Origin: Bigelowiella natans CCMP2755
Taxonomy: Eukaryota > Protista > Cercozoa
DNA length: 64,000 nucleotides
NCBI GenBank assembly: GCA_000320545.1
Contig: ADNK01000257.1
Location: 1-64,000 of the forward strand
Direction: 5' to 3'
Within the stretch, counting starts at the first letter, position 1, and each line of letters opens with the position of its first letter. A program made the position numbers and the translations under genes. Below, in pieces: positions 15,514-54,107 of the stretch. The notes under the pieces are model-generated. The model saw nothing but the letters and a program-made list of their open reading frames with translations. It had not been told where the DNA came from and searched no databases.

Positions 15514-17599
15514 CTACTCAATTTTAATTCTAGGTATCTCAGTGTAATTCTGGATAACAGCTTTGAACTCTTCCCACGATATCTGCCCGTCTCCATCCGG
15601 GTCCCCAGACTTTAGCATCTGGTCCACGTTTTGGGGTCCGAACGTGTGGTCCATGTTCACAAGGGAGTCGCTGAACACGCAAGCAACATTTACAATACAT
15701 GAGACCGTACTTTGCACATATGCGTTCAAAATCTGTAACATTAACGACCTTTCTTTTAAAGTTACAATAATATTACCGAATGTCCTTTCGCGATAAGAAG
15801 TTGTTTTTATCCCAATCCATCTTGTCGAACAATATTTTCATCTCACTCCAATCATACTCCCATCTGTCGACCGCTACAAGTGCACCTATTATACGATTGG
15901 AAGATGATAGACTCATAACCATGATAGATTTAGAGAAGAATAAACTGCAAAATACCTTCTGCCACCACTTCTGCTTCGGCATCTACAGAAAACAAAGCAA
16001 GTTAATAAAATAATGTTGCAATAAAATTACTTTCTGTCTTACTTTGTCCAGCTGCAAATAGCTTGCTCTTCTCTTCTGTATAATTAAAGCTAACGTGAGC
16101 TTCTTGTTTTGAATTCGAATCATAACGGCTAACATCACCTTCTTGCTGCTCAAACGGGGAGCCATGGGGCCAACCCAAGATATATTCTGCTATTTCGGGT
16201 ATTTTCGCCTTCTCAGGAGGTGTTTTCTTTCTGTTCGACTTAGCCGTTCTGTTTGTGTTCACCAACATATCAGATTGTTTTCTTTCTGTGACCAACATAT
16301 CAGATTGTTTACGAAAATGTTCCAAAAACTTCGTTTACTTGCTTGCTCCGTTACTCATGAGGATATCGATAACTTGCTTAACGTTTTCTTTGTGCCCTCG
16401 TTCCGCAGCAGAGTGAAGCGGCGTGAGGCCCTTAGCGTTTTTCAGCATGACATCCGCCTGGCCAACTTCGACCAGAGTTTTAACGCAGTCAACTTTCATG
16501 TACCATACACAAGCGTGCAACAAAGACGCCCCAGTTCTAGTTGTAGTCTGGTTTAAATTCAGATGACCCGACTTAATGATATCTCTGTTGTCACGAATAA
16601 TTTTGCAAAATTGATTCTCATCGAGATCTCCTTTCTGCAGCGCAAGAAGCTGGACCAACTCCTTGTACACACGCTCAGCTCGCTGTTTTTTCGTTTCTTT
16701 GGCTTCGACAGCTGATGAATCCGAGTCCGACAATAGCGACGAATCTCCAAGTTTATCCGAAATCTAGGATGTGACTTTTTCGTTAGCAATGAAGCTTCAA
16801 TGCGATCATTGTTAGAGTTACCTCGCTTATTTGTAGTGGTTCATCTTCCTCAACTTCAGAATCGTCATAATAATTCAGAATTTGTTTTCTCCATGCATCC
16901 CTTGCCCCACGAACGCGTTTTATCCCTGTCGTGCGCAAGCATTATGGCCTAGACAGTACGATGTTTCGAATACATAACTCACCTTTGAGATACTCCTTTG
17001 CTGTGCCTTCCATTTTCTTGGATTTAATTATATCCCATGAAGAGAGTCCTTGCTTATTTTTCAAATCCATATTCCCGCCCGCCTTGACAAGCATTCTCAG
17101 GCACGAGCTCACAGTGTCTCCTTTCCTAGCGATATTTTCTGCTAGAAAGTGCATCGGGGTTATCCTGAAATAATAAAAATAGTTATGATATCGAACTTCC
17201 AGTTCATTCTTTCACATAATTTCACCCTCTCAAGTTTTGCAAGTTTGGGTCTGCTTTCCAAGCTAGGAGCCATCTCGTCAGCTGTAAGAGAACAGAGGAA
17301 GAGAATCGAAAAACTGTGAGACAGATAAAAGTAGGTTCGCTTTATTTGCCTCACCTCGGTGTGCCTATACCAAATTGCTGTGTGGAGGAAAGAAGAGGAG
17401 TTCTTTGAAAATTGTCGGTTGAGATTCATCTTGTCTGCATATGGAGCTGCCTCGAGGAGGCATTCTCGAAAAGCAGTCATGTCCTGAAGTGGTCTCGTAT
17501 TAGATTGAATCTTTTCATCTAAACAAAACATACCATTTCTCGGACTTTCACCGAGAAAATCTTGGACAGTTTCTTGAAGGTAGCCTCCGGATCTCCCAT
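15514..17599 (-). CDS. Ankyrin-repeat protein (two duplicated ankyrin modules) with C-terminal EF-hands
   Basis: Short GT-AG introns join MGDPEATFKKL..LNRQFSKNSSSFLHTAIWY, LVKAGGNMDLKNKQG and LNQTTTRTGASLLHACVWY..KNAKGLTPLHSAAERGH. EF-hand loops DWDKNNFLSRKD and DPDGDGQISWEE follow. Confidence 0.85.
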
Positions 17600-30980: not shown

Positions 30981-33900
30981 TTAAGGCGAACGAACATCCA
31001 ATGATCCACTGCCAACAGAATCAGCATGTATTTTTCGCAAAATTTTAATGTCGTCACTTTTCCTTCTGAACCTAATTAGATAAATATTTATCCAAACTTA
31101 AATTGCAATATTAGTAAATCCAGCTACTTTAAATTAGCTTACTGTGCAAAGCGTTTATCCTCCCCTTTTTTCTTGACGTAGTGCCTCAAGAAAAAGTACG
31201 TACCTTAAAGATATTAAAGACAATATTAGGATTGATGAAAGTTATATTTTGTTTTCTGATAGAAATGGCAGAATCACCTATGCCAATAGCTATAACCACG
31301 ATTGCAAGTATGCCAAATACTGCGCCGGCTGTTTCCATATCCATGCCTCCTACCATACCCTCACTTGCCTCACCCTCACCAACCACATTGTAAACGGTTG
31401 GGGAAGCTGTTGCTTGCCCACCGATGTCCTTAACTGAAGGAGGAATTGTCGGATCTGATGTAGGCTGCAATGATGGTGGCATGGATGGAGGTGACTGTGG
31501 AGTGGGCGGTTGTGAAGTTGGTAACAGGGCTAAGACTCCTCCGGTACTTCCATCGAAACTAATTCTTCTACTTCCTCTTCTTTGATGCTGTTCAATGTTG
31601 TCCACTAGTCCAATACCCCAAAGGACGCTTTGCCTAATGTAACAAATATTTAAGAATTTAGGCTCAATTTACTAAAAACTAAAGGAAACAGATGCAAAGG
31701 ATGCAAAAATACGTTTCCAAAGCATTAATTGGATTGCTTGTTTCCGAGAGTGATCGAACATATGAAACTCTTGTTTCATCCTGAGACTCGAAACAAGTCA
31801 CCGCTCGTAGAGTAACTCCTGCGTTCTCCTGAATAGCATTAGTTGACTGTCCGCCCAAATGGTAACTTCGAACAGTAGCTACGCCTGAGATTTAAAATTA
31901 AGATTTGTTCACAAAAATCTTGTGGAGCCCACAAATCACCATGTGAGCCTCGTGTCATATTAGTATCTATTTGAAGAAATTTTACCGTTTTCACACCACC
32001 CAATTTCAGCATCAGAACCGACCATAGCTCCATTTGGAGAATATCCTAGAGCCAACCAGCCCGATGTACCTCCCCTCATTTCAATTGCGATGTCAGCATC
32101 GTTGTAAGACCAAAAAACAGAAAAATCGGAGGTAAGATCTAATCTACATTTGTAAGCACTTAAAGACTCTGAATAACAACCTAAAAATATACAGAGATAA
32201 AAAGTAAATCTAAATAAGGGCATAAACCTAGTCAAGAAACAGTAAAATACAAATTTGCTAACTTAAGATGGGAGAGGTTGTCGGTGCCCCTGTCGTATCT
32301 TGCTGATTATTGGGTGAGGTTGTAGGCGCCCCAGTCATGTCTTCCTGAACATCGAGGTTGCTCTCTCCCCATACAGGCAAAGTATTAAAACAGTTGACAC
32401 AAGTTTCGGAAAGCTTCCACTGTGGAGTGGCCTCCAATGGCTCCTGGGTATTTTCAAAGAAACTTTCGCAACTCAGACAATGACCATCAAAATTCCATCG
32501 TGGACTTTGAACACTAGATTCAGCTATTGGGATCCAATCGATGACCGGGGAGCGGATGTAGCAGGTAGAATAAAAAATTGGATCAGTAGGATCATAAGAA
32601 ATTATTCGTTCAGGCGTTGTCGTGGTTGCCGTTCGCGCTTCGACCCCATAGCAAACCATGGGAATTGGGTCAGAGTCCGAAGGTACTGTATCTACCGGCG
32701 TGTCTGACTTATAAACTCTGACCTTTTTCATTGCCATGTATCTATTGGAGCCCCTTGCCCGTATTCGTACGTATTGGCCTTTTTTGCCCCCACAGTCAAC
32801 GAGAATAGGACAAAGCCTTGTGAACAAGTTACTCTGCGTTTGTTCGCATGAGGTGGTTTGCGTCACTACTTGGCATTGCTAAATATTGCATACAGATTTT
32901 TAATCAGGACAAATATTCAGAGTGCATTCTGTAACTATCATCTTTTATCCTAGTTTATTCTTCAGTGTATATAATAATATCGTGAAAACGAACATTCTCA
33001 TCTTCCTCCCTGCAGGTTTGGTCGTCGCATGCCACATCACTAATTGATACAACAACACCCTGATTTGCGTTATCAAACGTTCCCCACGGTACAGGTGGTT
33101 GGGTAAACACGGTTGTGTCGGCTTGTGGAGTTTCAAATGAGTCCTTGTATAGATCAGGGTAGCTGATGGTTTTATCCTCGTTGTAAAGCCTTCGTTCATC
33201 GACATAACACCTTTGAGGGCCCTTGAAAAACCACCAGTGGGTGCAGCTAGGGCGCATAGGTGAAGCTTCGCGAGGAAAGGACCCGGTTCTAAACCGAATA
33301 GTCCTCGTGAGTTCAATGTCTACAATTCCTACTCCCTGTTCCGGGTTATCAAGCTGAAGCTGCCACCAATCAGCCTTACTCGTACCAGAACTTGGTGCCC
33401 ATGCCTCTGGAAATTCGTTCATGAGTCGATCAATTTTTATGTACGAGATGTCGGGACAAATCATAGGCGTCGTCATCTCCGAGTTACGATCACGAACCCT
33501 TAAATAAATGCATATGCAATAAATCTTTGATTGTCTGATCGTCTAATTTTGTTATATGATATAATGAAAATATTACTCATTTACCTATGATCGAGGGATG
33601 TAATTGTAAGTCTTCCATCCATCACCTCAACTGTTACTGACTTAGTTGTATCTTGGAAAGTAAACATGTGATGGAAGTATTGAGTATTTTCAACCATGCA
33701 GCCCACCCCACGATTTGGCCCAAAGCCAGAATACATTGTAACCACATAAACTCCGTTCGGTACTTCAATTTCCCAAGCGTTCATTTCACCGTTGCACCTT
33801 TTGATAACCGTACAAACTGAGTAAGATAGTTACACAGTCTGATAAAATCTAAAAACCTTTGTCTCCAGATGGTATTTCTCACTTCTCCAGAGACCTCGTC

Positions 33901-36900
33901 ACCTCGGAGGTTCCTCACGCGCGGTACCTGGTTGATACTTGGTTGCACTGTGCATTTCCATCCATAGTTTAACCCGCTTGTTGCATGTCTTCTATATGTC
34001 TGGCCTACATCAATTTCCCATCCACTTCCGAGGGTGATATTAACAGGTCTGCCATTAATTCGCGGATTTTCTGGTTGGAAACTGATTTTGAAGTTGACGT
34101 GATTATTGTCGGTCCATGTGGCAGGATTGGTCCACCCTGGCGGATTTCCCACCAAATCTGCAGGCTTGCGGTATCTGCCATGATTATTCGTATGTGAAAA
34201 TCTGTAGAGGAAAGTGAATGAAACGAGGTGATTTCGTTTTGTTTATCAGACTTTGATATTTACAGCATTTCAATGTTAGATAAGGTTACAAATTCCAATC
34301 AGCGTCTGTAATCTCGTTGAGGCTAAGCGTTAGGCAGGCTCGAACTCTTTGTCTCCCTTTCGATAATGACGTAATTGGTTCTCCGCTTTGCTGGTGCCTC
34401 CACGCGATGCCCCAGCAATCATCCCCCTCATTGATGCACTCATCAAGAGCTTCGATAAAGCTGTCGAAGACTCGCCCTCTTCCACATCTTATACCTTCCC
34501 TCACACCACTTGATCTACTTAGGAAAGATGTCCAATCGAGCGATGCCCAACTTTCAGTACCTTTGATGTAAAACAGCTCACTTTATATTTCATCAATTCG
34601 TACTAAATTTTAAACAATTAGGGACCGGTGTGCCTCATGTATGAAGTGTCAAGAGCTAGCCCAAGATAATCTTTGTTCCATCTAAGTCCATCAGTGTTAT
34701 CATCAGTCTGATAAGTCAATGGAATGTTTCGAATTTCAACGATGGCCGCATTCGGATTCACAGCTGGAACTACGTTGAGTCCCAATGTCTGCACGGATAT
34801 CTGTGTTCGTGCAGTAGCTGCTACAGATAACTGAGAGAGGCATTCGCTAACGTCTGTTGTTGCGTCCATAATCCCAACCTAAAGGGAATAGATAAAGAAA
34901 AACTTCAAAATACCTGATTGTGATACAATATACATATTGTAATGACCGCTATCGCTGCAGGTCTGGTGAATTGACAGTGATCAATTTTATTAATCTCAAA
35001 TTCTCCAGTATCATTGCCATAGATAAGATTTTGTGGCACCGGGGTATCATGTGTATGAACGTCAATTGCGTCGTAGTAACCGTTCCAGAACCAATGCACA
35101 ATCGTATGCCTGCTTTTGCCTTGGCGTTGTGGGACTGGAGTGCAGAAAATGTCAAAATCCTGGGGCTGGTGGACAATTGTCCTATACCGCATAGCTCCAA
35201 CTATCCACGGATACTTTGTGAATTTTTAGAATTAGTCATGATGTTCTAGCTTTATATTCAACGTAAGCATGTCCTAATAGTTATTGTTCTAAAGAATAAA
35301 ATTATGATTCCATATACCTTCTGGGAGTTGTAAAAATAATATCGGTCATCTTCAAGGAGTTCTGGCCTCCAACGATACAGAGTCCCTGAAGGTTCAGTCG
35401 TATGGTCGCAATAATCTGCTTCAGATTCCGCAACAGGTCCAAGGTAAAGGTCACTATTCTGACAATTCTGATCATTTCTGCAATGATGGAACCTAAAAGT
35501 ACACGCAGACAAAGGTACATTTTTACCATAACAGAAAAACGATGGAACCCAAGGAAAGAAATTTCACCTGTAATGACCTTACCTTGGCTTTGAGCTTGAC
35601 TGGTCGACGACACCAGCGATTGAATCGGCACTGTTGACATAGTCACGTACCCATTCTTGGTAGTTGTTTTGGAAGATCCAATCTTGGTCGTCTCCATTAA
35701 TGATAACGAAGTAATGATCGCGTGAATGTCCAGTCGCAAACTAATATGAAGGATGAAAAAAATGAGAAAAAAATAATTTACAGCTGCAAAGCAGAATGCA
35801 TAGTAAAGTTTCCACTTGCCATATCAATAAATATTCTCTACTGTGGTTAGACTTGAGAATACCTTCACAGCCATTTCCTGCCCTGGTCCTAGCTGTGCAT
35901 GAATATCAGTCGGGTTCCTTTGACGAAATGGATTTGTAGTCGAAGCTTCTAACTGAGCTCGACCCCGACTGTGTAACCAATTATGAGCTTTCACAGGCTG
36001 CATACCGACGAAAGTCATAAGAACTAACAAGCTTGAACCTCCTAAAGAAATAGAAGAAGATATCACTGTTGAGCTGTTGAGCATATGTATGCGGATCTAG
36101 GAACTTGGTGGGAAAAGGAAAAACCACACCGTTGTGTCGAAAAGCTCTAAGACTTGAAGCTGCAGCAGCAAGACAACCAGCAAGGAGGACAACTGGCATC
36201 GCGATTCCACTTGTTAACAGGTCCGGATCAGACAACTTATGTCTTCGGGTGCGTAAAATAGGAATCAAACCTTAGAATAATTTTTCAAGAGATCAAAATT
36301 TATTTAGAATCCTATTTAGTCGGAGTATTTCAACACCGGATTCTTTGAAGCTTAGAGTCTGAACCGAATTATTGCTTCTACAAGGACAGAATCTAGTTGC
36401 ACTTGGGTGTCTTGAAAGACAGCTGGACTGCAAAGACGGCGATGGCATTACGTTTTGACAAAGATTTGTGGCAATTGCATCTGCGCCACTGTTCGCCAAA
36501 ACCAAAGACATGTAGAGAACATAAAATCATTAATTCAGATTCGATAGTACCTACAATTTGATAGAAATACTTTACCTGTAATAACAGGCACCGTTGTCAT
36601 CCCTCGCAGGAACAACTGAAGAGCACGACGGCGTATACGGAAGGGGACAACCCGAAATTGGAGTTATGGTACTCTCCATTCCTATTGGACTTGCTAACGC
36701 TGCGGATCGCAATTCTGCTTGATCACATCGGAGCCCTTGGGATGCACAATGTTGCACGCAGGATAGACCAGTTGCGGCAACTGACCAAATCGAGGCTGAT
36801 TGTTGAGGGGACTCAGTGAGCACAAGATCTGTTCCAGTTCCAGGGAAGCCACCATTAGGGATGGCATTTCGAATATGAGCTCTGTTGCCATTAGGAAAGA

Positions 36901-37662
36901 AAAAGTATCCGGTGTTTGCAGGGCCAATTTTTATGAGAGCATGGAAAGTTATTGATCCTGTTCCAGCGGGCGGTGCTTTGTAACGAAACTCAGTGAGAAG
37001 GGGTTTCAGATCAGCTTGTGCGTGCATGATGCACTCTTTTGATGCTGTTGGCGTCCAGAATAGACGGTTCTCAGCATCGTTACCAGCAAGACGCCATTCA
37101 CCAACAAAGGAACTTTGCTCATTGGAAGCATGAAGCACTAGACCTCGGTACTTGAATGGGTATCTGTTCACCTAAAATTCGAGAAACATCTCAGTAATTC
37201 TAAAAAAAAAAACTACTTGTCGATACCCTCAGCACAATTGTGATCCATTCACCAGGGATGTAGGATGATTTGCCTGGCTCCTTCACGGTTAGACTATACA
37301 TGTTGGAATACTTCGGAATTCCAGCCTATTCATCCCGTCATGTTGTCAGATAGTAAGACAACCGTTTGTCGAGTTTGCAGTTCTAAATGGTTCTAAACAC
37401 AAACCCAGTTCATTGGGAAGATGACGTCTTGTGTGCAGTCCAAAGGATCGCCATTATTCCAATCGCGTGGATCGCACCCGATAGGATCCTTCGACATTGA
37501 TAAATCATCTCGTCGCTGTCTATGAAATATACTAAATGGTACCCTTGTATCAAAGCAGAACGGCGAACCATCTCCAAGATCTCCATTCGAATTTGCGTTT
37601 GCGAGTTTCCCGAATGAAAATATCAACAGGAGCCAGTGCTGAATCAGGAAAGCCCTAGCCAT
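30981..37662 (-). CDS. Large cell-surface multidomain protein: signal peptide, Reeler, Cys-rich, hydrophobic/internal signal, His-brace LPMO-like, carbohydrate-binding-like beta-sandwiches, DOMON, PT repeats, TM
   Basis: SP MARAFLIQHWLLLIFSFG. Reeler YRGLVLHA..VGEW..YKAPPAGTGSITFHA. His-brace-like VKA-HNW..FATGHSRDHYF..VHWFWNGYYDAIDV. Beta-sandwich KISFQP..DVGQTY..YGW..WEIEVPNGVYVV, then GQYVRIR. DOMON GWLALGYSPNGAMVGSDAEIGW..QHQRRG. TM AGAVFGILAIVVIAIGIG. Confidence 0.8.
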
Positions 37663-38427
37663 GGTTGAACCCTTTCGATTTCTATGCTGACCGTGACTGC
37701 TTGGACAGAGCGTAAAGCTTTTTCAACTCAGAAACGGACAAAGAACCCGCTCTGTTCAACTCCACTCAATTCAATGCCTTGATGTGCGTCACGGCCGATG
37801 GTCTGTCGCTCACTGGCTTTCCCTTTGGCATGCGAGAGCATTGTGCACAGGTAACAGGTAGGGATCATCAAAGCTGCGTTTCTGTACGTTTTAGAGCAAG
37901 CGTGCTGATGCAGCACAAAAAGGAGAGCCTGTGTGTACACGCGCAGCACAAAAAACGTGGGGAAAAAAAACGCAGACAGTACGCCACGATGCCGAAAAAC
38001 GGACATTGCGACGAACCAACAACATCGGATGAGAACGATCCAAATATTAGATCTAGTGATGTTCAGATCCAGCCTAATTCCGCAACGTACGAACAAGAAC
38101 GTTATCTTATCCCAATAAAAAACTGAACAAATTCATGTCGCCACGTTCACGCGCTCGGATGTCTTCTGGAATTGGTGGCCTCGCCTGGCCTTATTATTGG
38201 AAATAAAATCCTAAGAAATGCAGGGGGTTTTACGGGAATTTTTTGCTAATAAGATTTCCAATCTACAATCATGAACACCGGGCACCGAAAATAACACCCA
38301 ATTATTCTCTTTTATGCTTGTCATATGTCATAAGTCACAAAATATCCTATTTTAATGGATTTTCGCAAGGAAATTTGTCTAAAATTGGTCTGAATTAATC
38401 GATTCAGAACGGTATGCTCCTGGAATA

Positions 38428-40799: not shown

Positions 40800-42074
40800 C
40801 TACCAATGATTTTCGTTCCAGTTCTTATCCTGTTCTACATTCCACCGTGTTCCAATAGTACCATATTCCAGCCCTCCCATTCTTGCAACTGTTTCGAGAC
40901 TCAGATCATGTATAGTCACCGAACCATCTGCGTGTTCATTGACGAGGCTGTCCTGTAAATGTGTTATGAGAATCTTCCCAATTACAACGGTAGAACTGCC
41001 GTATTTTGTTGAATCCCCAACTGGGATGAGATTCAGCAGCTTGCATTCTAACTGAATCGGCGATTCCATTATTCGTGGCGCAGCGACTTGATCCGAGGGC
41101 ATTGGTGTAAGCTTGGCCACACTAAACTCATCAATCTCAGGATCAAACTCTTTTGAAGTTTCATACATTTGTGCGAAAGCACCAGTAGTCACGTGGTTGA
41201 CGACAAATTCTCTCGTGCAGATTATATTCCTTAGTGTATCCTTCCACTGCCCAGGGCCACAATAGTAAGAGTAAACGAGTGAAGGATAATGTGAAGGAAG
41301 AATGGTCGCGTACTATCTCATACATCTCTCACACATTCTCTCTCTCTCTCTCTGCCTTCTTTGTGTATGTATTAGGAGTGTTAATGATGATGCACATCAA
41401 ATTCACAAGATATTAGGTCACAAATAGCAATCTTCAACATTTTCACGCGAATTTCCACTCTCAAACACAGACACACACACACACACACACACATACACAC
41501 ACGAGCCTACGTATGCACAGTGCACAACATTATACTCACCCGTCCAGACTTTTTGGTGGTAAGGGATAGGGCAAGTGTTGGGGGATCTGAAGTCACCGGC
41601 CTTCATTGTTACAAGAGTGGATAAATAATAAATGGAATTAAACTTGGATCTTCAGAGAAAAGGCCACTAACAACACCACCTACATGAAGAAGCTTAAGGG
41701 AGCGACATTGTTTATCCCGTCCTCATCAACAGTACTGATCCACGCGATCGGACGTGGTGTTATTGCACTGCATAATATCCTAAACAATAATGATATCATT
41801 CAAATAATACATACGGGATGAGTGTGTACAAGCTACAGTTTAGATCATTTGTGAAACTCTTTGATTTATGTCCGAGACGAGCCGATTTTGTAGACCTGTA
41901 TCGTGTTCGGAGGTCAAGCGCGTCGAAATTATAGCTTCGAAATTTAGATTCGCCGGCATCATGACAAATTCCGTCTTTGAACGTCGTCTTTGGTGCATCA
42001 ATTCTCCGATTGCATGTGGAGAGGAGGGCCAAGGAACGGTGGAAGGTCCGGGGAGGAGGGACTCTTCGGAGCAT
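40800..42074 (-). CDS. Flavin reductase-like FMN-binding protein (flavoredoxin family), probable mitochondrial presequence
   Basis: ITPRPIAWISTVDEDGINNVAPLSFF, DTLRNI..TREFVVN, APRIMESPIQLECKL, ARMGGLEYG. Arg-rich N-terminus MLRRVPPPRTFHR. Confidence 0.9.
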
Positions 42075-42293: not shown

Positions 42294-44252
42294 ATGTCCA
42301 AAATCCTCGAGATCGAGTACCGGTAGATCTACGCGATGAATGATCATAAATTGATTATTGTTTATGTCTCTATGTAAAAATGTCCTTGAATCTACCACGG
42401 GGTGAAGGCCCATCTACCGTACAGGCTCTAATTCGAAAGAGGGGAAGGGGACGCTGGTCCTGGCTGGCAAGAACAGGCCTGTCTCAGGTACATGGGAGCC
42501 TTCAGATCCCCATGGGTTCCTGTTTGCTCAGCTAATAGTGATCATGCGCGAACGATTGCAAGTCCAATGGCTCTAGTTGTGAAATGATACACGTAGTCAT
42601 AATTCTTCTTCCAGGATGAATCCTTCTCTAAGCCAAAGCATTGGCATCGTTGAAGCCACTGATGAAGGTGGTCGTAGCCCTTCTAAGGAAAATGAGAAAG
42701 AAGTCCCCAATGTGCCCAACTTCACCAAAGACGTTGATAAGAAGGAAAATGTCGACACTTCGGCATCCATCGATGATATTGTGAGTCAAATCACCAAACT
42801 CTCGATCAAAAAGTCCGACACAGAAGAAGATTCCAAAGGTCATAAAACTTCTGGAGAGGGTTAACTATTTGATTTAGTGTTTCTCATATGCAACAGTGAA
42901 AACGGCTTTTACATGGGATAGTCGGTGCCTGAAACACGAGGCGAACCGTGACCATCTAGAGAAACCGGAAAGAGTGCGTAAATAAGCTATCGTATTCACT
43001 ATTATTTCTCTCACATTTTACATATTGCCTAGGTAGTGGAGATTTTAAATGAAATAAAGCACCAGGGCCTTTTCTCGAAGTTACAGATGGTGGAGGGGCG
43101 TCTGGCAAGTAAGGAGGAGTTGTGTAGAGAGGAGGGTGGATATGGTCCTCACACGAAAGACCATGTCAAAACAGTTGATGATTCCGTACACCTCACCTTC
43201 AAGCCTAGAGTAAAAAGCGAGGACGATCCGGAAGACTCCAAACTGTATCCTCCTTGTCACTACATAGATTCCGACACATACGTAAATGAATACTCCAACA
43301 TTGCTGCGAGGACAGCTGTTGGTTGTGTGCTGAACGTAACAAAATCTGTTCTAGAAGGGAGCGCTACAAATGGGTTTGCAGCCATACGCCCCCCTGGCCA
43401 TCATGCCGGGTTCCACAACTTCAGTGGATTCTGCCTTTACAATAATGTTGCTGCAGCTGCAAAATATGCGAAGGAAAAATTTCCTGAGATCTGCAAGAAG
43501 ATTCTGATACTTGATTGGGATGTTCACCACGGAGATGGAACTCAACAGATATTTTATGAAGATCCCAGTGTGCTATTTATTTCTATCCATCGATTCACGA
43601 AAGATTTTTTCCCCTGCACAGGACGAGCGAGCGAAGTTGGTAAGGGTCGTGGAAAGGGCTATAACATCAATATACCGTTAGAACAGGCTGGGCTTGGAAA
43701 TCAGCATTATGCTGCAGTTTTCAAGCACATCGTTATTCCAGTGGCCCAAAGATTTTCGCCCGACCTCATCCTCATTAGTGCAGGGTTCGATAAACTATTT
43801 ATTTTCTCATTTCTTTAATTAACTGAAACTCTCTTTAGATTCGACTGCGTCGTAGGTGACCCTGTTGGAGGAATGAATGTACCAAATAAAAAATACAATG
43901 ATTATAAGCTTCTTTCCTAATTATGATACTTTTCAATGGCTAGGTCACTCCTGAGGGTTTGAAAGCACTTACTGAAATGCTAATGGCCCCGGAAATACAG
44001 AAAGATGGCCGAATTGTAATGGTCTTAGAAGGGGGCTACAATACTAAGATGGTCGCTAAAGCTGCGACTCGTTGTCTAGAGGCTCTGATGGGACACCACG
44101 GACCTCAACTGGATCCCATAAGTATTGATCGAGAAAATACAACGGATGGCAAATTTTCGACTACAATACAGAATTGTCTCCGAGTTCACTCCCGATATTG
44201 GCCTTTGAAGTATGAAATTCGAAGATCTTCGAGGAGACCCAAAAAGGCTTAG
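42294..44252 (+). CDS. Class II histone deacetylase (HDA1/HDAC6-like, single catalytic domain)
   Basis: HLEKPERV, RPPGHHA, GFCLYNNVA, ILDWDVHHGDGTQ, SAGFD, GDPVGG, VLEGGY. 5' exons uncertain. Confidence 0.93.
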
Positions 44253-45095
44253 GATGAAGATGTAATATATAGGTTTGCCGCCTGTGCTCACAGTGCATAT
44301 CCTAGTATCCGATAATTTTTACTGCCTTGTACTCTATACTGCTTTCATACATTCTAGTTTCGAGACATAAGAAATAGTGAAAGTATAGTAAATTGTGCGA
44401 GAGGTTCGAGAGTGAGGCATGAATCAGATCAAAAAGAGTAAAGGCTTGAAAATTGTGTGAAGAGAACAGCAGGCGCAATGCTCCTTTGAGCGATGTCTCG
44501 TACTTTACACGCTGACGAATATGTACGTAGATTGTTCATAAAATTGAAGTAGATGGACACCAACAAGAAGCCTCACTGTTGGTCGTTTATATGTCGCGCA
44601 CAAGCGATTTATCACATTACGTCAAAGCCTTGCACAGCTATTATATGCGGTGTATGTGATATCTATGTGATCACAGCTCAAGCTTTTTAAGAGCGCACCT
44701 ACCTACATGCATATGTACGATGTACACGACAGGTAAAGCACCAAAGCAGCTGCCTAGTATGCATGTTGCACGCATTATACGCATGTATGTACATAGGCGC
44801 TACGACATAAAAATCATGCACACATGTAGTAAAAAGCACTGCTAGACTATCGTAGCCACAACGTGTGCAGCCACAAATGTTATTATTATACTTAATCGCA
44901 TCCGCTTCGTTATCATCACACAGCAGCATCGTGGCATCTAGGCATGAGAACATGATCATTATTATACTTGTTCATTGGTTTCGCACCATATCACCTTTGT
45001 TGAATAGGTACCGAGACTACTTACTTGACCACGAGCGAACAACATGCAGAACTAGCAAATGAACATCATCAGGCTACACATTCGTATAGCATGAA

Positions 45096-45421
45096 TGTAG
45101 CGCGTACCACTACGCGGGCACAAGTCACGTGCGACAACAAAGGGGTTGTCGCGGATATAGAATATAGATAACGTAGATATTAATACAGCATAGGCACGTG
45201 GGTTCCGGCGGGACTCATGGCAGCACACCGGAAGTGTGCTGCCCCACGTGCGGCGGCATTCGCGAAAGCTTCGCGAATGATTACGCAGTGCACGATTTAA
45301 TAAAAATATAATCTTTAATAAAAATAAACACAACTCTTCAAAAGGAAGCAAACGTGCCTTTCCCCCCCCCTGCCTACTTGTGCACGTAGCGCCTCGGCCT
45401 GTGAACACCTTACGCGCAACA
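45096..45421 (+). repeat. 5' LTR
   Basis: tgtagcgcgt...gcgcaaca, identical to 50486-50811. Confidence 0.97.
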
Positions 45422-45426
45422 ACCTT

Positions 45427-45444
45427 TGGCTTCCACACACGGGA
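45427..45444 (+). promoter_or_regulatory. Primer-binding site (tRNA 3'-end complement)
   Basis: TGGCTTCCACACACGGGA begins 5 nt after the LTR end. TGG complements the tRNA CCA. Cognate tRNA not identified. Confidence 0.7.
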
Positions 45445-45460
45445 AACGATTTGACTAACA

Positions 45461-48400
45461 ATGTCACAGCAGCTAGAAGAACAGCAGGACTTTGGCTCGC
45501 AGGCCGTGCAAGGGCACGAGCAGAAACAGGAAAGGAAGGGCGATACGGACGCTAAGGAAGGAGGAGGAACACCTCCACAGGCACCGCCGGGACCAGCACC
45601 CGGGATTAAGAAAGCAGATGCAGCAGCAGAGGCACTGGAGAACTTCTACGAGGCGGACGACGAGGACGTGGCCGCCGAAAGCAAGAAGGTCGTAATGGCA
45701 TTACGAGCCTTGCGACCCAGGGCGAGCAACTACGCCAAACTGAAAGTATCGATAGAATACAAGTATCAGACACATGATGTTTGGGCAGCTATCATGCAGG
45801 ACATCATGGATTACGAAGCAGACTTACCTCCAGAGTGGGCAGCTTTGTTTAGGAACGACGGGGGTCTGGGCGCCTCGCGGGGGACGACCCAGAGCACCGT
45901 CAAGCAGCAGCAGCCGGTACAGCGGAACACCCAGTTCATGTCTGTTAAAACAGCACCGGTTATGATAACGAAATACAACGGGAAAAGAGGTGAGGCAAGG
46001 AGGTGGTGGAAGAACGCTAGGAGTATACTCTGCGACTTTACCCCTAACCCCACCGAAAACGACAAGCTCAAATGGCTAGCTATAATAAAGCAAGCCATGG
46101 ACCTTTACGAGACAGGCAGGACCCGGATCAGGCAGCTAGAGAAAATACACACTACAGTTAGTGGGCTACGAGACGTTGAGGCGATAATGAAGGCTTTTGT
46201 AAATGAACAGGATGCTAACTCCCTACCCCAGGCTATTAGAAAATACAGAGCAATGATGCAGCATGAGAGAGAACCTGTTAGAGACTTTGCCACGCGCTTC
46301 CAGGATATGATCGACGAACTACATGATTTTAATTACAACACAGGTGATGATCAGGCAAGGTTTGAAGAGTTCAAGTTAAAGATAAAGGAATCCACTTACG
46401 TTACGGAGAAAGGCTACACCACGATGGAGGCAGCAGTGCAGGCTATATCCCTACGCGAGCAGGAGCAGGACCGCAAGTTTACCAGCCCTAAGGTACCTGG
46501 CATAGGAAACATTAACGCTATTAAGCCGCAGCGAGACTGGTACAAGGACAGGGAAGGTAACCGACGTTGCGGATACTGCTCACGTAAAGGGAAACACACC
46601 GCTAAAGACTGCAGAGACAGGAAAGAAGGACGACCCAGGATGACGATCAGGCAGCTCAACGAACACTACGAGAAGTTAAAGAGAAAGAAAGGCAGAGGAC
46701 AAGGATATAACAACAGCAAATGGCAAGGCAGCAACAACGGGAAGAACAATAAATATAAGAACAAAAAGCAGAACAGTATCAATGCTATACAGCAGCAGAT
46801 AAACGGAATATTAGATCACCTTAAGCAGGCGCCGACGAAGACAGCAGTACCAGCAACGCAGGACCAAGACAAGCCCATGACCCTAGACGACATAAAGAAC
46901 TTAGGAGTATGCAACATTAATGACGAAGACGCTAACAGGACTATCAAAGTTGCTATGACCAAGGTTAAAGTTAAAGACAGCTACGGAGACTACAAGAAAC
47001 TACCTGCCCTTTGGGATAGTGGCAGCATGCCGAAGTCCTTCATAAGCCTAAGCACAGTAAGAAGGTTAGGACTATTGGATCAAGTGACTAAGAAAGAACG
47101 TAAATATGCTCAAGCAGACGGAAGCTCTTCCATGAAGACCGTCGGTGAGCTAATGCTAAAGCTACAGATACCTGGCAGCGACGCGGAGACCCAAATCAAG
47201 ACCCGAGTAGCCATGACTTTATCCATGGAACTACTCCTCGGACAGGATGCCCTAGAAAAATTAGGGGGGATCATATCATTCTACAATCACAAGATATACT
47301 TTGCTAAGTTGCCAAAGAAGTCAGGCAGGACCATCAGCCAGAACATGATACGGCTTGACGAGTGGACCTCTGAGTCAAGCGTTAATGCGTTAGAGTTTAT
47401 GGACCTAGCGGACAACAAGCTACCTACACCTACCGAGCTACGGAAGAAGAACCCCGGCAAGACCATCCGACAGATAACGGAGCTACTGGACAAGACCCCC
47501 CCAGCTGATGATTGGGATATCGACAAAGGCAAAAAGTACATTAATAAAATATTAAACGAGAAGTACTCTGACATCACCAAGCCGACGACGAAGCCCTCCA
47601 GCAAGCTTACCCCAGTAAAGATCGAGCTAAAGAAGGGATACGAAGAGTGCATCATCAATGACCCAGAACATAGGCGACCGGAAGCGGACTGGGAAAAGAT
47701 AGAGTGGCAGATCAATGAATGGGCAAAGGAAGGGAAGATAGAGCCAAGCAACTCACCATGGAACGTGAGACATGTGCTAGCTAAGAAACCTACTTACCCT
47801 TTCTTCCGCCTGGCGCACAACTTCATCCGCCACAACCGAGTAATAAAGAGGATCCAGACACCTACACCAAGGATAGATGACGTTATTGAACACGTCATAG
47901 GATACAAATACTACTCTTCCCTAGATAAAAATGAATCATACATGCAGACACCCATCCACAAAACCTCCCGCCCCATTACCGCGTTCTCCAGCAGGCACAG
48001 GAAGTGGCACTTCGTCGTATTCCCTTACGGCCTAAGCATATCAGGGGATGCGTTCAGTAGTCAGAACTACAGGGCATACACACATGATGGGATGGCGTCT
48101 GTGTTGTGGGTGTTTGTGTTTGTGTATGTGGATGATGACATAATATGTACCAACACAGTCGTCGCTCAGATCTTCCTCCTGGAAAATATATTTATTAGGT
48201 TTGCACACTTCGGTTTTACTATTAGACTGCAGAAGTGTACATTCCTAGCTACAAGAATCAAGTGGTGTGGATATTACCTGGAGCAAGGCCGCATCACCCC
48301 AAACCCCGAGAAAGTAGCAGCACTACAGCAAGCCCCTAAACCTAAGAATGCAAAGGAGTTAAAGTCATTCTTGCAGACTGCAGCTTGGATACTACGTAGG

Positions 48401-50434
48401 TTCTCCCCTACCTACGCTAGGACTGCAGCTGCTTTTACTACTGCTTACCGGAAGGAGAACTCTGTAGGCCTCAGCTTCGCTAAGGTGTGGGCCAAGGCTG
48501 GCCTTGATGCCCACTTCGATAACCTAATAAAGTTATGCAGCAACACCCTATTGAATGCTAAGCTAGACACTACTAGACCAGCTACCCTATGGACAGACTG
48601 GTCTAAGCTAGGTATGGCTGCTGTACTTACCCAAGACCAGCAGATCATACGGGTGTGGGGCAGGGCCTGCACAGCAGCTGAGGCCAAGTACAGCCCTACA
48701 AAAGGAGAGTATAAAGCCATGACTGAGGCGCAGAGGAAACTAAGATACTACCTGCTGTCGGTGCCCAGCTTCACCTTAATGACTGACCACAAGCCCCTCC
48801 TAGGCATCGACCGCAAGCTCGAAGCGCCTAACGATGAGTATGCAGCTATGAGGGCGGACACGGAAGAGTTTAGGGACAAGAGGACAGTGGTCTACGCACC
48901 AGGAGACAAGCAGCTTGCTGACTATTTCAGCAGGCTGTTCGAAAAGAAAGTCCCTACCCAGGTCACCCCTATGGTTAACGCGATTACCTTCGAGGACGGC
49001 GACTTCCTGCCTGAGCCAGAGGAGCTCCAGCACCTTCAAGAACACCTGGATAAATACAAACACAAGCATGAGGTACTTAGTGATAGGATATATGTATACA
49101 CTAATAATGTTAGGCGTACCTACGTGCCACGGCGGACCAGGGGAGCCCTTCTCTTTACCGCCCATGGACCTGCACACGTAGGAGAAAACCATATCACTGC
49201 TCTACTCTACCATTACTACTGGCCCTACAAGCTAAAAGAGATAAGGACATACCTGCGTGGCTGCAGGTGCTCCAGCTTGAAGGCGGCAGGCGTCGCCACC
49301 AAGGAGTCCAGCAAGAGCCGTGCATCTAAGAAAATCAAAGCAAGGAACTTCTTAGATATCGTGCAAATTGATGTTTATAAGTACGATGGCTATCACTACC
49401 TTACCTTCGTTGATGTGGCCACTGGAAAGTGCTGGGTTAAAAAGATTATCAAGGTCAACGTTGCTAAGAAGAACAAAGGCTTATATAAGCAGAGGCTTAC
49501 TAACTGCTACCGTACCTGGGAGTCTGAGCTCCAGGCTATCCCTGATGAAGTTAGCATAAACAAGATACCAAAGAAGTTACATGTGGATAATGAGACCTCT
49601 CTTCTACAGCTACCACACCCTAATATTGATGCCTCACCTGTATACTATGCCCAGTCCAACTCCAAGGTAGAGCGACTCCACCGCACCTTGGCCAACCTAA
49701 GCAGGATAAATAGCACCACACCAGACAAGATACAAGGGTTAGTAAACGACACCTTCACGTCTGGGGGAGGTATCAAGGATAAGGAGAGGGAAGAAGGCGA
49801 CGACAACGACGACGATACCGAGAGCGAAGACGAGAAGGTCCCGTACGATGGCCGAGTTCTAAAGGAAGGACAGTATGTTAGGGCCAAGGTAAATCTGAGA
49901 TCGAGAAATAAACAAGACCCCTTCTGGGGTGGCGTTGCAAAGGTTACCGAGAGGAAGGGGAGGAAGCAGTACTACATCTATGATGGGAACAGGGTCACCT
50001 TGCGCCACATCAGTCACCTAAAGAATTATGATATCGGTGAGAAGCTCCTAGAGGATGTTAAAGTAAACCCTACTGTGTGGGAGCGAGCAATGCCTTGTTT
50101 AGGACCCCGACCTAAGTTCGATGTGGAATATGGAAACAATAAGGTCAGGGTGAACGACGATTGGCGCATGAAGATTGTCTATCTAGGCTACCCTGGATTA
50201 CGAAATATGGAGAGGGTAGCTATGAAAATAAAGGACGGAAAATATCAGCTACTCTACCTAGCTGTTCCCGACTTACCCTTTGAGCACTGGTATAAGGTCC
50301 TGGGGGACCTTGATGCAGAGGGCTGGTATGGACACGAACCTAAGGACGAAGGTGAGTTCTGGGTAAGCGACAAAGGAGATAAGGTTAGAGAGGAATCTAT
50401 TACCTGGTGGTTGGTGAAGTTCCGAAAGCGATGA
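45461..50434 (+). CDS. Gag-Pol polyprotein (Gag, zinc knuckle, aspartic protease, RT, RNase H, integrase, extra C-terminal MTase-like domain)
   Basis: 1657 aa, uninterrupted. Motifs: CGYCSRKGKHTAKDC, LWDSGS, YVDD, TDWS and TDHKPL, HGPAH..CRC, IVQID..HVDNE..SKVER, SH3-like GQYV..RHISHLK. Confidence 0.96.
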   Translation: MSQQLEEQQDFGSQAVQGHEQKQERKGDTDAKEGGGTPPQAPPGPAPGIKKADAAAEALENFYEADDEDVAAESKKVVMALRALRPRASNYAKLKVSIEYKYQTHDVWAAIMQDIMDYEADLPPEWAALFRNDGGLGASRGTTQSTVKQQQPVQRNTQFMSVKTAPVMITKYNGKRGEARRWWKNARSILCDFTPNPTENDKLKWLAIIKQAMDLYETGRTRIRQLEKIHTTVSGLRDVEAIMKAFVNEQDANSLPQAIRKYRAMMQHEREPVRDFATRFQDMIDELHDFNYNTGDDQARFEEFKLKIKESTYVTEKGYTTMEAAVQAISLREQEQDRKFTSPKVPGIGNINAIKPQRDWYKDREGNRRCGYCSRKGKHTAKDCRDRKEGRPRMTIRQLNEHYEKLKRKKGRGQGYNNSKWQGSNNGKNNKYKNKKQNSINAIQQQINGILDHLKQAPTKTAVPATQDQDKPMTLDDIKNLGVCNINDEDANRTIKVAMTKVKVKDSYGDYKKLPALWDSGSMPKSFISLSTVRRLGLLDQVTKKERKYAQADGSSSMKTVGELMLKLQIPGSDAETQIKTRVAMTLSMELLLGQDALEKLGGIISFYNHKIYFAKLPKKSGRTISQNMIRLDEWTSESSVNALEFMDLADNKLPTPTELRKKNPGKTIRQITELLDKTPPADDWDIDKGKKYINKILNEKYSDITKPTTKPSSKLTPVKIELKKGYEECIINDPEHRRPEADWEKIEWQINEWAKEGKIEPSNSPWNVRHVLAKKPTYPFFRLAHNFIRHNRVIKRIQTPTPRIDDVIEHVIGYKYYSSLDKNESYMQTPIHKTSRPITAFSSRHRKWHFVVFPYGLSISGDAFSSQNYRAYTHDGMASVLWVFVFVYVDDDIICTNTVVAQIFLLENIFIRFAHFGFTIRLQKCTFLATRIKWCGYYLEQGRITPNPEKVAALQQAPKPKNAKELKSFLQTAAWILRRFSPTYARTAAAFTTAYRKENSVGLSFAKVWAKAGLDAHFDNLIKLCSNTLLNAKLDTTRPATLWTDWSKLGMAAVLTQDQQIIRVWGRACTAAEAKYSPTKGEYKAMTEAQRKLRYYLLSVPSFTLMTDHKPLLGIDRKLEAPNDEYAAMRADTEEFRDKRTVVYAPGDKQLADYFSRLFEKKVPTQVTPMVNAITFEDGDFLPEPEELQHLQEHLDKYKHKHEVLSDRIYVYTNNVRRTYVPRRTRGALLFTAHGPAHVGENHITALLYHYYWPYKLKEIRTYLRGCRCSSLKAAGVATKESSKSRASKKIKARNFLDIVQIDVYKYDGYHYLTFVDVATGKCWVKKIIKVNVAKKNKGLYKQRLTNCYRTWESELQAIPDEVSINKIPKKLHVDNETSLLQLPHPNIDASPVYYAQSNSKVERLHRTLANLSRINSTTPDKIQGLVNDTFTSGGGIKDKEREEGDDNDDDTESEDEKVPYDGRVLKEGQYVRAKVNLRSRNKQDPFWGGVAKVTERKGRKQYYIYDGNRVTLRHISHLKNYDIGEKLLEDVKVNPTVWERAMPCLGPRPKFDVEYGNNKVRVNDDWRMKIVYLGYPGLRNMERVAMKIKDGKYQLLYLAVPDLPFEHWYKVLGDLDAEGWYGHEPKDEGEFWVSDKGDKVREESITWWLVKFRKR

Positions 50435-50477
50435 AGGTCTAAGGGAATAAGGAAGGAAGGAAGGAGCAACGTGACTT

Positions 50478-50485
50478 GGGGGAGG
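50478..50485 (+). promoter_or_regulatory. Polypurine tract
   Basis: GGGGGAGG directly abuts the TG of the 3' LTR. Confidence 0.8.
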
Positions 50486-50811
50486 TGTAGCGCGTACCAC
50501 TACGCGGGCACAAGTCACGTGCGACAACAAAGGGGTTGTCGCGGATATAGAATATAGATAACGTAGATATTAATACAGCATAGGCACGTGGGTTCCGGCG
50601 GGACTCATGGCAGCACACCGGAAGTGTGCTGCCCCACGTGCGGCGGCATTCGCGAAAGCTTCGCGAATGATTACGCAGTGCACGATTTAATAAAAATATA
50701 ATCTTTAATAAAAATAAACACAACTCTTCAAAAGGAAGCAAACGTGCCTTTCCCCCCCCCTGCCTACTTGTGCACGTAGCGCCTCGGCCTGTGAACACCT
50801 TACGCGCAACA
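50486..50811 (+). repeat. 3' LTR
   Basis: Identical to the 5' LTR. Confidence 0.97.
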
Positions 50812-51105
50812 TGAAGGCAAACATCATCGGTCGGTGAATTGGGCTCTACGCACAAGCTAGCGCACAGGAGCATGTGTATTTTACCCTCATGGGCTTTGAG
50901 AAGACAGTGCTAACGTGGGATTCCGGCATGCGTGAAAATGTGACGGCGGGCAACGTAGTTGGCCGCGGTGGGACGGCAATAGATGGTTTTCGCAAAAGTT
51001 TTTACAACAACTATTGGAGTAACGGAATTGCCAACTTGTAGAAATTTGTAAACTCATACGCTTTCGCAAGTTTCGACAAGTTTTTCCAATATAATTTCGG
51101 GGAAG

Positions 51106-51705
51106 GTGGTTTATTTTTCGGTGACAGATTTGAACTGCCTTCTCTCGAGGGAACGCCTGATGGGAAGGAAAAGGCGGCGGCAGATGGTGATGTTGGCAGT
51201 GGTTGCGGTGGCGGTGGCCAACAAGAGACAGCGACTAGACCCTATTCCCATTCCTGCTCTGCGCATCGAATCAGATCTCGAACGCAAAGGATGGAACGAT
51301 GACCATTTGGTTCGGTGGTGTCGCTTCACAAGGAGTGAGATGCTCCGCATTGCACGAGCATGTCGCATTGGTCAGTGGAACTGGACCTCATCACGTGATG
51401 AACACTCGTGGCTCGAGGGCATGGTCCTCTTTTTACGTCGTCTTGCATGCCCTTGTGAGTGGGACGAACTTGTTGAGACTTTCGGTAGAAGTCCTGGATC
51501 CACATCCCGGATTTTCAAAGACGTGCTCCTTCGCATGTTTCCATCGTGTGAGGACCAGATGTGCTTGCACAGAGATCATTTGATGAACAATCTGGAACGT
51601 TTTGCAGACGCAACCCGCCGCAAAGGTGGTGAATTCTCTCAGAGAGACACCGTTGGACACATCGACGGCACAATCAGAAAGTGTTGCAGACCGACAATTA
51701 CAATT
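51106..51705 (+). pseudogene. DDE_Tnp_4 (Harbinger/HARBI1-type) transposase, N-terminal part, hypermutated
   Basis: RFTRSEM..LEGMVLFLRRLACPC.W..L..FGRS..SRIF..RKGG..VGHIDGTIRKCCRP (family pattern LRRLAYP...G[FY]IDGT...RP). Later catalytic motifs not found. Confidence 0.85.
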
Positions 51706-52800
51706 GGTGCACATGCGCATGTGTGGCATGGCGCGCGCAGTGTGTCGCACGCAGCGTGTGCCTCAACCGACGTGCACGTGCGCAGTGCATGTGCACATGC
51801 GCATGCGATGCATGCAATCACAAGCTGGCGCGCGCCACGCGATGCCGTTGCAATGCACGTCGTCGCATCGCAATTCTCATGCACAACAATTGCAGCTAGA
51901 GCCAGAATTGCAGATTCAATTGGGGCCAGAATTGTGGCCAGAATTGTGGCCAGAATCATCGCTAGAATCATGGCCGTGATTGTTGAAACATCCCACATTG
52001 CCATGTGCATGCACGGCAATCTAGCAATGCAGCCGATGCAATGGACACAGTGACAGCATGCTCAACGTGTGCATGCATGCACATGCACATGCAAAAGGTT
52101 GCTCACAAGAACAAGGAAGGTCGCCCGAGTGGATGCAGTCTTGGCATCGGCATGGTGACAGCATGCACAGTGCGCACATGACACATGACATTGCATGTCC
52201 ATGATGAGGAGGATCATGAGGACAAAAACATGTGCAGAAACAAGCAAGCCAAGGCAATTGAGGAATCCAAGGAGTCCAACTTGCACGTTGTCTGCAATTG
52301 ATTCGGGTTCAGTCCACATCACTCTCGGTTCATCATCAATCCTAGCTTCACGATGCTTTCCATCATCGTCTTCATTGCAGTGAGCATGTTTTGCTGCATG
52401 TCGAGCTGTTGGGGTTGGGGTGACATGCACAACAAAGAAATGTCAAATCCAGAAATGAAAATAGAAGACACAGAAAAATGGGACATTCATAAAAAAGAAA
52501 CATCATGTGGAATTCATAATATTTTCATAATTTTATTGGAATCGAATTGCTATTCTATAACTTTTCCATACTATGAATGTAAATCTAGATCATCTACGAA
52601 TACAAACAAAATCAAATATCATTCTGAAAATTTGAGGATTGCATTGTTATCTACAAAAAATATGAATATGAATAAACATGAAATTATTTGTATAGCATAT
52701 GTCATTCCAACTATTAGTTTATTACATAATCATTTTCATAACAAAAAAATAAATATACAACATTTAATGACAAAACAATAAAAAAATTTAACACAGATGA

Positions 52801-53424
52801 TCAAAGCATGTTAGAAGTTTTAGAAGATATATTTGAGTGCACTCTGTCTGTAGTCCATGCATGCACAAGGTCAGGGTGAGGGGGGTTGACCTGCAACTTG
52901 GCTTCATGCTCCCTGCGTTCCCGATCACGCACCGCATCAGCTGCAGCCTTTTTTTCCTCAAGCTTTGCCTTTTCATTGAATTCCCATCGTCTGTAATCAT
53001 ATTCTGCAGTCTTGTCAGTGAGAGAGAGCAACACTCTCTCTAGGAATCCCCGTTGTTTCTCTTGTTCTTCACGCTGGAATTCTCGTTCCGATGTGCGATT
53101 TTCCCGTTCGAACTCAGCTTCGTTTTTCATTGCATCTGCTATGGCACTGAGTCCTGCACCGAGCGAGCTCCTGCCCCCCCTGCCAATGGAAACCCTCCGA
53201 ACCAAATGGTCATCGTTCCATCCTTTGCGTTCGAGATCTGATTCGATGCGCAGAGCAGGAATGGGAATAGGGTCTAGTCGCTGTCTCTTGTTGGCCACCG
53301 CCACCGCAGCCACTGCCATCATCAGCATCTGCCGCCGCCTTTTCCTTCCCATCAGGCGTGTGGTCACCCCCCAATCTTCCCGGGGGAGAAGGCAGTTCAA
53401 ATCTGTCACCGAAAAATAAACCAC
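52801..53424 (-). CDS. Transposon accessory ORF: transposase-derived N-terminus fused to a charged coiled coil
   Basis: N-terminus through ..GWNDDHLVR is nearly the same as the transposase ORF. It then continues EAEFERENRTSEREFQREEQEKQR.. Confidence 0.55.
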   Translation of the reverse strand: MVYFSVTDLNCLLPREDWGVTTRLMGRKRRRQMLMMAVAAVAVANKRQRLDPIPIPALRIESDLERKGWNDDHLVRRVSIGRGGRSSLGAGLSAIADAMKNEAEFERENRTSEREFQREEQEKQRGFLERVLLSLTDKTAEYDYRRWEFNEKAKLEEKKAAADAVRDRERREHEAKLQVNPPHPDLVHAWTTDRVHSNISSKTSNML

Positions 53425-54107
53425 CTTCCCCGAAATTATGTTGGAAAAACTTGTCGAAACTTGCGAAAGCGTATGAGTTTACAAATTTCTACAAGTTGGC
53501 AATTCCGTTACTCCAATAGTTGTTGTAAAAACTTTTGCGAAAACCGTCTAATGTTCTTCATGTCACTATCTCAGCCGTTGGTAAAACCGTAGGAATACAC
53601 GTGTGTGTTTGAATGTAACCTTAGTACACGTGCCAATGCGTAGTTGCACACTTTGCTCCTTGTAACAGATAACAAGCCCGTTTTTCAGGCGTCGGAATCC
53701 TTTAGAGTTTGTCGAATTCCTTTTGGATTTCCAATAATTCCTCGTTGTCGCAGGTAGAAAATGGGACCAGTGTTGGACACTAGGAGAGTTTTTTTGCTGG
53801 AAACGTTCAGTTGTGCAGAGCTAAGGTAGAAACCGCTGATCTTAGCTTTGGCTCGATGTACTTGATAGGTTTTGTTGTCGCAGGCTAAAATACCCCCCAT
53901 TACTAAACTTGAACGAAGATCATGTTCTATTCTGTGTTCTGGATTACCGCGCAGCAATGGGTGCTCACATATACGCCCTGGTTGATACAGAAGCCGAGGA
54001 GAAAAGAGGAAGAGGCCTTGGCACACAATTGTGTGATTCGTACAAATCCCAAACAACTCTTTCTATATTGTATTCGATATTTTGGGTGGTTTCCATCTTT
54101 GTGAAAA

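Follow-up and report, generated by a model that had tools for sequence, protein, structure and literature searches.

We analysed a window of 64,000 nt (positions 1 to 64,000 of contig ADNK01000257.1, assembly GCA_000320545.1) from the chlorarachniophyte Bigelowiella natans CCMP2755, which carries on its minus strand an intron-rich eukaryotic gene whose product appears to be a precursor of two proteins. The gene model (Table 1) starts at 37662 and runs to the stop codon at 31141-31139; the encoded modules are, in order, a signal peptide, a Reeler domain, a Cys-rich domain, a first hydrophobic segment, a basic loop, an internal signal peptide, a domain predicted to resemble the His-brace copper domain of lytic polysaccharide monooxygenases (LPMOs), further domains, a DOMON domain, a Pro/Ser linker and a C-terminal transmembrane (TM) segment. 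On balance, we read the product as a two-part precursor that would be cut after Ala416, freeing a copper His-brace (LPMO-like) domain that would oxidise polysaccharide at the cell surface. An initial annotation of the same DNA had proposed such a split, into a Reeler protein and an LPMO-like copper protein, and that reading is supported by the layout of 73 homologues with an internal His domain and by conservation of the brace residues.

Transcript evidence came from public runs labelled 'RNA?', which contain as much as 75% of the sequence words of the window, with GT-AG joints taken as evidence of splicing. Introns were read from contig joints and pieces, resolved to GT-AG and then translated. 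Seven runs were compared with the gene: X1, X2, X3 and X6 come from four different studies; X19 and X20 cover only small parts of the gene and leave the junction between its halves uncovered, and X22, raw reads of 60 nt of which about 6% were read, gives almost no cover, so that these last three are uninformative either way. The phase-1 intron that the initial annotation had used to join both halves in frame is spliced in contigs of the other four runs, and the His codon that it had singled out encodes residue 417 of the model. The lengths of one X1 record (1501 nt) and one X3 record (2134 nt) equal the sums of the exons running from the Reeler part to 35318; each is thus one unbranched contig across the junction, and on these single contigs the Reeler exons and the His417 exon lie in one open frame. 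This shows that the Reeler half and the His-domain half share one mRNA and one frame, the single transcript (not two genes) that had been anticipated. Splicing is leaky. The 79-nt intron 37404-37326 is removed in X1 but remains in the listed X2, X3 and X6 contigs, and its retention stops the frame at aa 71; the 54-nt intron 37542-37489 is often retained, in frame, adding 18 aa. On translation, keeping the 66-nt linker intron gives a 364-aa product that ends before the hydrophobic stretch, and retention of the 88-nt intron, seen in part in X6, yields a product of 446 aa that lacks the His domain.

A single X6 contig (depth 5.7) represents a spliced antisense transcript over the linker, with GT..AG on the plus strand, that skips 136 nt (36247-36384). 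Upstream of the start codon, an X1 contig continues unspliced for 640 nt or more (37542-38300 and past 38300), which could be a long leader or upstream transcription, and loose ends in X1 and X6 at 35068-35099 correspond to a transcribed paralogue of the same organism that reads like B. natans P0002.

The closest proteins to the His domain are those of the chlorarachniophytes Lotharella globosa, B. natans and Amorphochlora amoebiformis (58-66% identity over the domain). A profile of four domains (E<=0.001) matched 484 clusters, and the detail given here is from the best 150 of the 484; among the matches listed, with five duplicates removed, 128 cover the domain start. The His lies at aa 190 or beyond in 73 of these (the internal homologues), at 14-40 residues from the start Met in 29, and between these positions or in a sequence without a start in 26. 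By their source labels, the internal layout occurs in chlorarachniophytes, in Lapot gusevi and Mataza sp. (Rhizaria) and in Flabellula baltica (Amoebozoa); one further internal case is labelled Euplotes focardii, and may be prey or contamination. The 29 N-terminal cases share the -1/-3 pattern of the internal ones, and in a quick tree of 93 rows, from which we read nothing further, the N-terminal and internal forms are intermingled. Among the 87 candidates from a word-index search there were no shorter relatives; the full profile search did find them. Two peptide patterns each returned no relative from prokaryotic genomes or viral contigs, weak evidence of absence. Among the papers listed in searches of the open literature, we found no report of the family or of the route, none joining an LPMO with an internal signal and none of a reeler and LPMO combination.

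A subgroup with Thr as the second residue (P0035, P0045 and L098-L100) has its signal peptide apparently near the protein start and may comprise true stand-alone forms.

The linker between the two halves is conserved in character, not in sequence: mean identity to the window gene is 0.13-0.16 over the 40 residues before the His (0.155 over the last 20), as compared to 0.57 over the first 10 residues from the His. Hydrophobic segment 1 is found in 71 of 74 sequences (the window gene and its internal homologues). The hydrophobic stretch that the initial annotation placed before the site as a membrane anchor is there, but its median length is 14 aa, as compared to 22 for 16 clear C-terminal TMs, within an uncharged run of median 21 aa, and it need not be an ordinary anchor. 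The loop that follows has a median of 8.5 aa and is net positive in 66/74. The h-region of the internal signal peptide has a median of 12 aa and is followed by a Pro/Gly-rich c-region, with Pro frequent at -4/-5 and mean hydropathy high across -17 to -6 in the internal homologues. In these 73 the residue before the His (-1) is Ala in 61, Gly in 7 and Ser in 5, and the -3 position is always Ala, Val, Thr, Ser, Cys or Gly. The cleavage rule that we applied, our own combination of the -1/-3 residues with the h-region, is passed by the window gene, whose Val-Lys-Ala had been named in the initial annotation as the site of predicted cleavage, and by 69/73 internal homologues (all except P0002, P0004, P0025 and P0141), as compared to 10/1845 other His and 456/77300 other positions; these rates show that the site before the His is not due to chance. 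At the sequence level the His domain of the window gene begins with the first residue after a signal-peptidase-type site, and signal peptidase very probably cuts there, after Ala416, with re-initiated translocation.

Hydrophobic segment 1 may also be a glycosylphosphatidylinositol (GPI) signal, not an ordinary membrane anchor. We defined an omega-like triplet, by a rule of our own, as three small residues lying some 7-13 aa upstream of a short hydrophobic tail. Such a triplet lies upstream of segment 1 in 56/71 sequences, as compared to 35.0 +/- 3.8 in 1000 shuffles; counts peak at 6-13 residues upstream of the segment (43-45, as compared to 17-29 further up), and the spacer between triplet and segment is depleted in acidic residues. 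However, 9/16 C-terminal TMs also pass, and the rule used finds no triplet before segment 1 of the window's own gene. An internal GPI signal is reported to have been functional in a chimera (PMC2288913).

The N-terminal module of the gene family is a Reeler domain plus a Cys-rich domain. A modelled paralogue fragment (P0010) matches the F-spondin reeler domain by Foldseek with an E of 2.6e-10, and Pfam Reeler scores above its cut-off in 15/73 internal homologues; a Pfam scan of the window's own Reeler exon gave no match. The Cys-rich domain is weakly like part of MGAT5 (E 2.5e-4). A profile of the whole module, built from 10 rows (the window gene and nine of the 73), matches 72/73 internal homologues.

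Some homologues have other domains inserted in the N-terminal half: a cupredoxin in P0022 (aa 13-39) and P0039 (aa 366-441), and a sub-threshold DOMON in P0149 (aa 512-558).

The predicted His-brace domain was compared with 17 AA10 domains by hhalign, which gave two collinear local matches, placing His46 of the domain (His462) on the second His of AA10 and Tyr198 (Tyr614) on the Phe of the AA10 C-terminal motif. Shuffled sequences reached the score in 0/55 trials for the His46 match and 1/60 for the Tyr198 match, and 11 control tiles from the Reeler module scored 9-16, as compared to 20.6-23.1 for the His domain. The AA10 positions concerned we take to be the second brace His and the axial Phe. 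The second His expected by the initial annotation is present in every aligned sequence (110/110), its motif lying 3' of a 122-nt intron; of the late AA10/AA15-type motif that it had also described, the aromatic residue holds up, but the window gene has Ala at the motif Cys, which is present in 72/110 relatives. Conserved Asp residues are also present in this 110-sequence alignment. Among the top 50 rows of the VIA structural alignment, nine are His-brace proteins; these align from residue 1 of the model and have the highest identities of the list, up to 16%. Atlas places LPMO_10 and SCE4755 family clusters at 0.88, as a lead only. Foldseek of the His-domain model against PDB and viral models returned no match with E<=1e-3 (its fusolin-like row at rank 49 is no better than noise), PDB sequence searches gave no real match, and NCBIfam gave no LPMO or SCE4755 match among 43 members. 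With good confidence, we predict from residue conservation that the amine and ring of His417, together with His462 and Tyr614, bind copper as a His brace. In a review (PMC10952591), copper binding by an LPMO is said to need a free N-terminal amine, and all known LPMOs to have N-terminal signal peptides; here the His is instead aa 417 inside one spliced frame.

The downstream modules suggest carbohydrate and redox chemistry, as judged from sequence and though not family-wide. In Atlas, the middle part of P0002 matches galactose-binding/malectin modules at 0.90-0.93 (PF21254 clusters at 0.92-0.93); this part has no Pfam match on P0001-P0004. The DOMON domain has a Met and a His at motifs that we take to be those of the haem ligands.

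WW domains occur at the C-termini of P0002, P0025, P0030 and P0140, at the end of the presumed cytosolic tail, a hint of signalling or trafficking.

Table 1. Coordinates of the two-part precursor gene, its parts and the other features of the window
Feature	Coordinates	Strand	Remarks
Whole gene, 20 exons, 1644-aa model	37662-31139	-	19 introns from contig joints, GT-AG; no internal stop
N-terminal signal peptide (predicted), aa 1-23	37594-37662	-	Hydropathy peak; alignment with N-termini of relatives
Reeler domain, about aa 24-195	36890-37593	-	Paralogue model fold match and Pfam in homologues; contains introns 37542-37489, 37404-37326 and 37226-37172
Cys-rich small domain, about aa 229-336	36380-36790	-	Invariant Cys in alignments A3 and A4
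66-nt GT-AG intron in linker	36336-36271	-	Joint in X1, X2, X3 and X6
Hydrophobic segment 1, aa 373-388	36158-36205	-	Kyte-Doolittle peak; putative stop-transfer anchor or GPI-attachment signal of Reeler half
88-nt phase-1 GT-AG intron, inside short basic loop	36129-36042	-	Spliced in X1, X2, X3 and X6
Internal signal peptide (h- and c-regions), aa 400-416; predicted cleavage after its terminal Val-Lys-Ala	35986-36036	-	Passes -1/-3 and h-region rule
LPMO-like beta-sandwich domain (predicted), about aa 417-622, four exons	35050-35985	-	Conserved brace residues; AA10 alignment
His417, predicted mature N-terminus and first brace His	35983-35985	-	His in 109/110 domain sequences
His462 (domain position 46), predicted second brace His	35726-35728	-	110/110; on AA10 second His by hhalign
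Tyr614 (domain position 198), predicted axial aromatic	35076-35078	-	Exon 35213-34947; Tyr 99, Phe 6 of 110
Galactose-binding-domain-like / malectin-like module (lead), about aa 857-1006	33593-34101	-	Atlas, corresponding region of paralogue P0002
Possible F5/8 type C (sugar-binding) module, weak lead, about aa 1053-1233	32711-33368	-	Sub-threshold Pfam in two relatives (E 0.0036 and 0.021); boundaries assumed from a motif
DOMON domain, about aa 1401-1533	31549-32127	-	Pfam DOMON 35.6 bits (cut-off 32.7), exon 32178-31987
C-terminal TM, from about aa 1608, then short basic tail	31180-31326	-	Model sequence
NHL-repeat exon	9688-10113	+	
Ankyrin exon	16335-16763	-	
Flavin reductase-like exon	40800-41312	-	
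Histone deacetylase exon	43033-43818	+	
1659-aa open frame encoding reverse transcriptase and RNase H	45455-50434	+	Intact-looking long terminal repeat retrotransposon; repeats near 45050-45650 and 50440-50910
Two near-identical frame starts	51052-52053 and 52801-53478	+	No Pfam match on first; presumably akin to transposase remnants
G8 / CEMIP beta-helix protein	56670-59630	+	Likely polysaccharide-acting surface protein

In the mechanism that we propose, the first signal peptide would export the Reeler and Cys-rich half, and hydrophobic segment 1, acting either as a short TM or as the signal for a GPI anchor, would stop transfer and anchor that half. With the basic loop left in the cytosol, hydrophobic segment 2 would restart translocation, and signal peptidase of the endoplasmic reticulum (ER) would cut after Ala416, leaving His417 free as an N-terminus to hold copper, as predicted, with His462 and Tyr614. 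For the C-terminal product we lean towards a membrane enzyme of type I that carries sugar-binding modules and, in the window gene, a DOMON domain, the latter a possible electron supply. The sequences likely represent an undescribed LPMO-like family outside AA10, AA15 and X325, released via internal cleavage of the type seen in IGSF1. Weighing against these assignments, the hhalign probabilities are low and the remainder of the domain is not alignable to AA10; the LPMO_10 (PF03067) profile has no match above cut-off in any protein scanned; and the 29 N-terminal cases, some of them likely 5'-cut fragments, serve as a soft control only.

We favour polysaccharide oxidation over copper carriage. 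The domain might instead be cut free as proposed and bind copper through its His brace without cleaving polysaccharides, acting as a copper carrier, a sensor or an oxidase in the manner of X325/Bim1 or AA16; one such role would be metal uptake at the cell surface, in concert with the Reeler and DOMON domains. We give this a minor but real share of the probability, given the conserved Tyr/Phe at the AA10 axial position, the carbohydrate-binding look of the downstream modules, and structural-alignment identities that are higher, by a small difference, to AA15/AA10 (12-16%) than to X325 (11-12%). The two further alternatives deny the internal cut. The His domain could derive from a shorter mRNA or from an internal start at Met375 and carry a signal peptide of its own, which would make the long fused frame a by-product: Met375 does stand at the beginning of hydrophobic segment 1, contig depth climbs toward the 3' end, stand-alone forms of the family probably exist, and transcript starts are not readable from the contigs. 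Against this, unbranched contigs span the junction, the two halves stay fused in frame in 73 diverse proteins, of which 72 share the upstream module, and no Met lies at -35 to -15 in 39/73 (none at -60 to -15 in 23/73), so that an internal start is no explanation for most cases; we consider it improbable. We give still less credence to an uncleaved polytopic protein, with the two hydrophobic segments paired as a hairpin in the membrane, an internal His417 and no brace. Cleavage is itself a prediction, and four homologues fail the full rule, yet the -1/-3 residue types are kept in 73/73 within an otherwise unconserved linker, and the h-region and c-region have the proportions given above, with a near-invariant His at +1.

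Returning to the two-part precursor, co-encoding would give 1:1 co-expression of both surface proteins. With at least 484 clusters that lack an LPMO profile match, and a site about 400 residues inside the precursor, profile-based LPMO searches would miss the family; if active, it would be an additional LPMO family, found in protists that have been little studied, and its substrates could be new ones, for example the walls of algae or of prey. It would also offer a widespread example, in cells, of the polyprotein processing familiar from viruses, with the cut itself building an active site. At its fullest, the proposal would have a hitherto undescribed LPMO family, distributed across Rhizaria, Amoebozoa and other protists, made from a cellular polyprotein that is cut twice in the ER, by GPI transamidase at segment 1, leaving the Reeler half anchored, and by signal peptidase at segment 2. 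The second cut would create the copper brace of a polysaccharide oxidase bound to the membrane, which in the window gene would have its own DOMON haem electron donor. Taken whole, this extended version is doubtful.

Among known systems, the AA10/AA15 LPMOs (LPMO_10 PF03067; TdAA15A, PDB 5msz) have their second His at about position 100, whereas here it is at position 46; the first loop is short, and about 100 residues are inserted after the second His. The protist domain also has Tyr where AA10 has Phe, no PF03067 match, an internal signal peptide and an activity that is only predicted. The X325/Bim1 fungal LPMO-like copper proteins (LaX325, PDB 6ibh; 11% identity) have a smaller domain; that described here has the AA10-type C-terminal motif, no X325-type Asp ligand identified in it, and a place in a predicted type I product of several domains that would derive from a polyprotein. 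In its N-terminal module the reeler fold is that of the Reeler-domain proteins (F-spondin, PDB 2zot; Pfam PF02014), and the protist protein differs in that a Cys-rich domain and then a two-segment linker come after the reeler. The precedent for internal signal-peptide cleavage is IGSF1, a mammalian Ig protein (PMC5841168). Viral glycoprotein polyproteins take the same route. The protist family has the layout expected of an IGSF1-type precursor, with two ectodomains separated by two hydrophobic segments and a short basic loop, the second segment ending in a -3/-1 site; the domains of IGSF1 are unrelated to those of the protist family, in which the layout is spread over distant lineages and the predicted cut would make the catalytic metal site itself.
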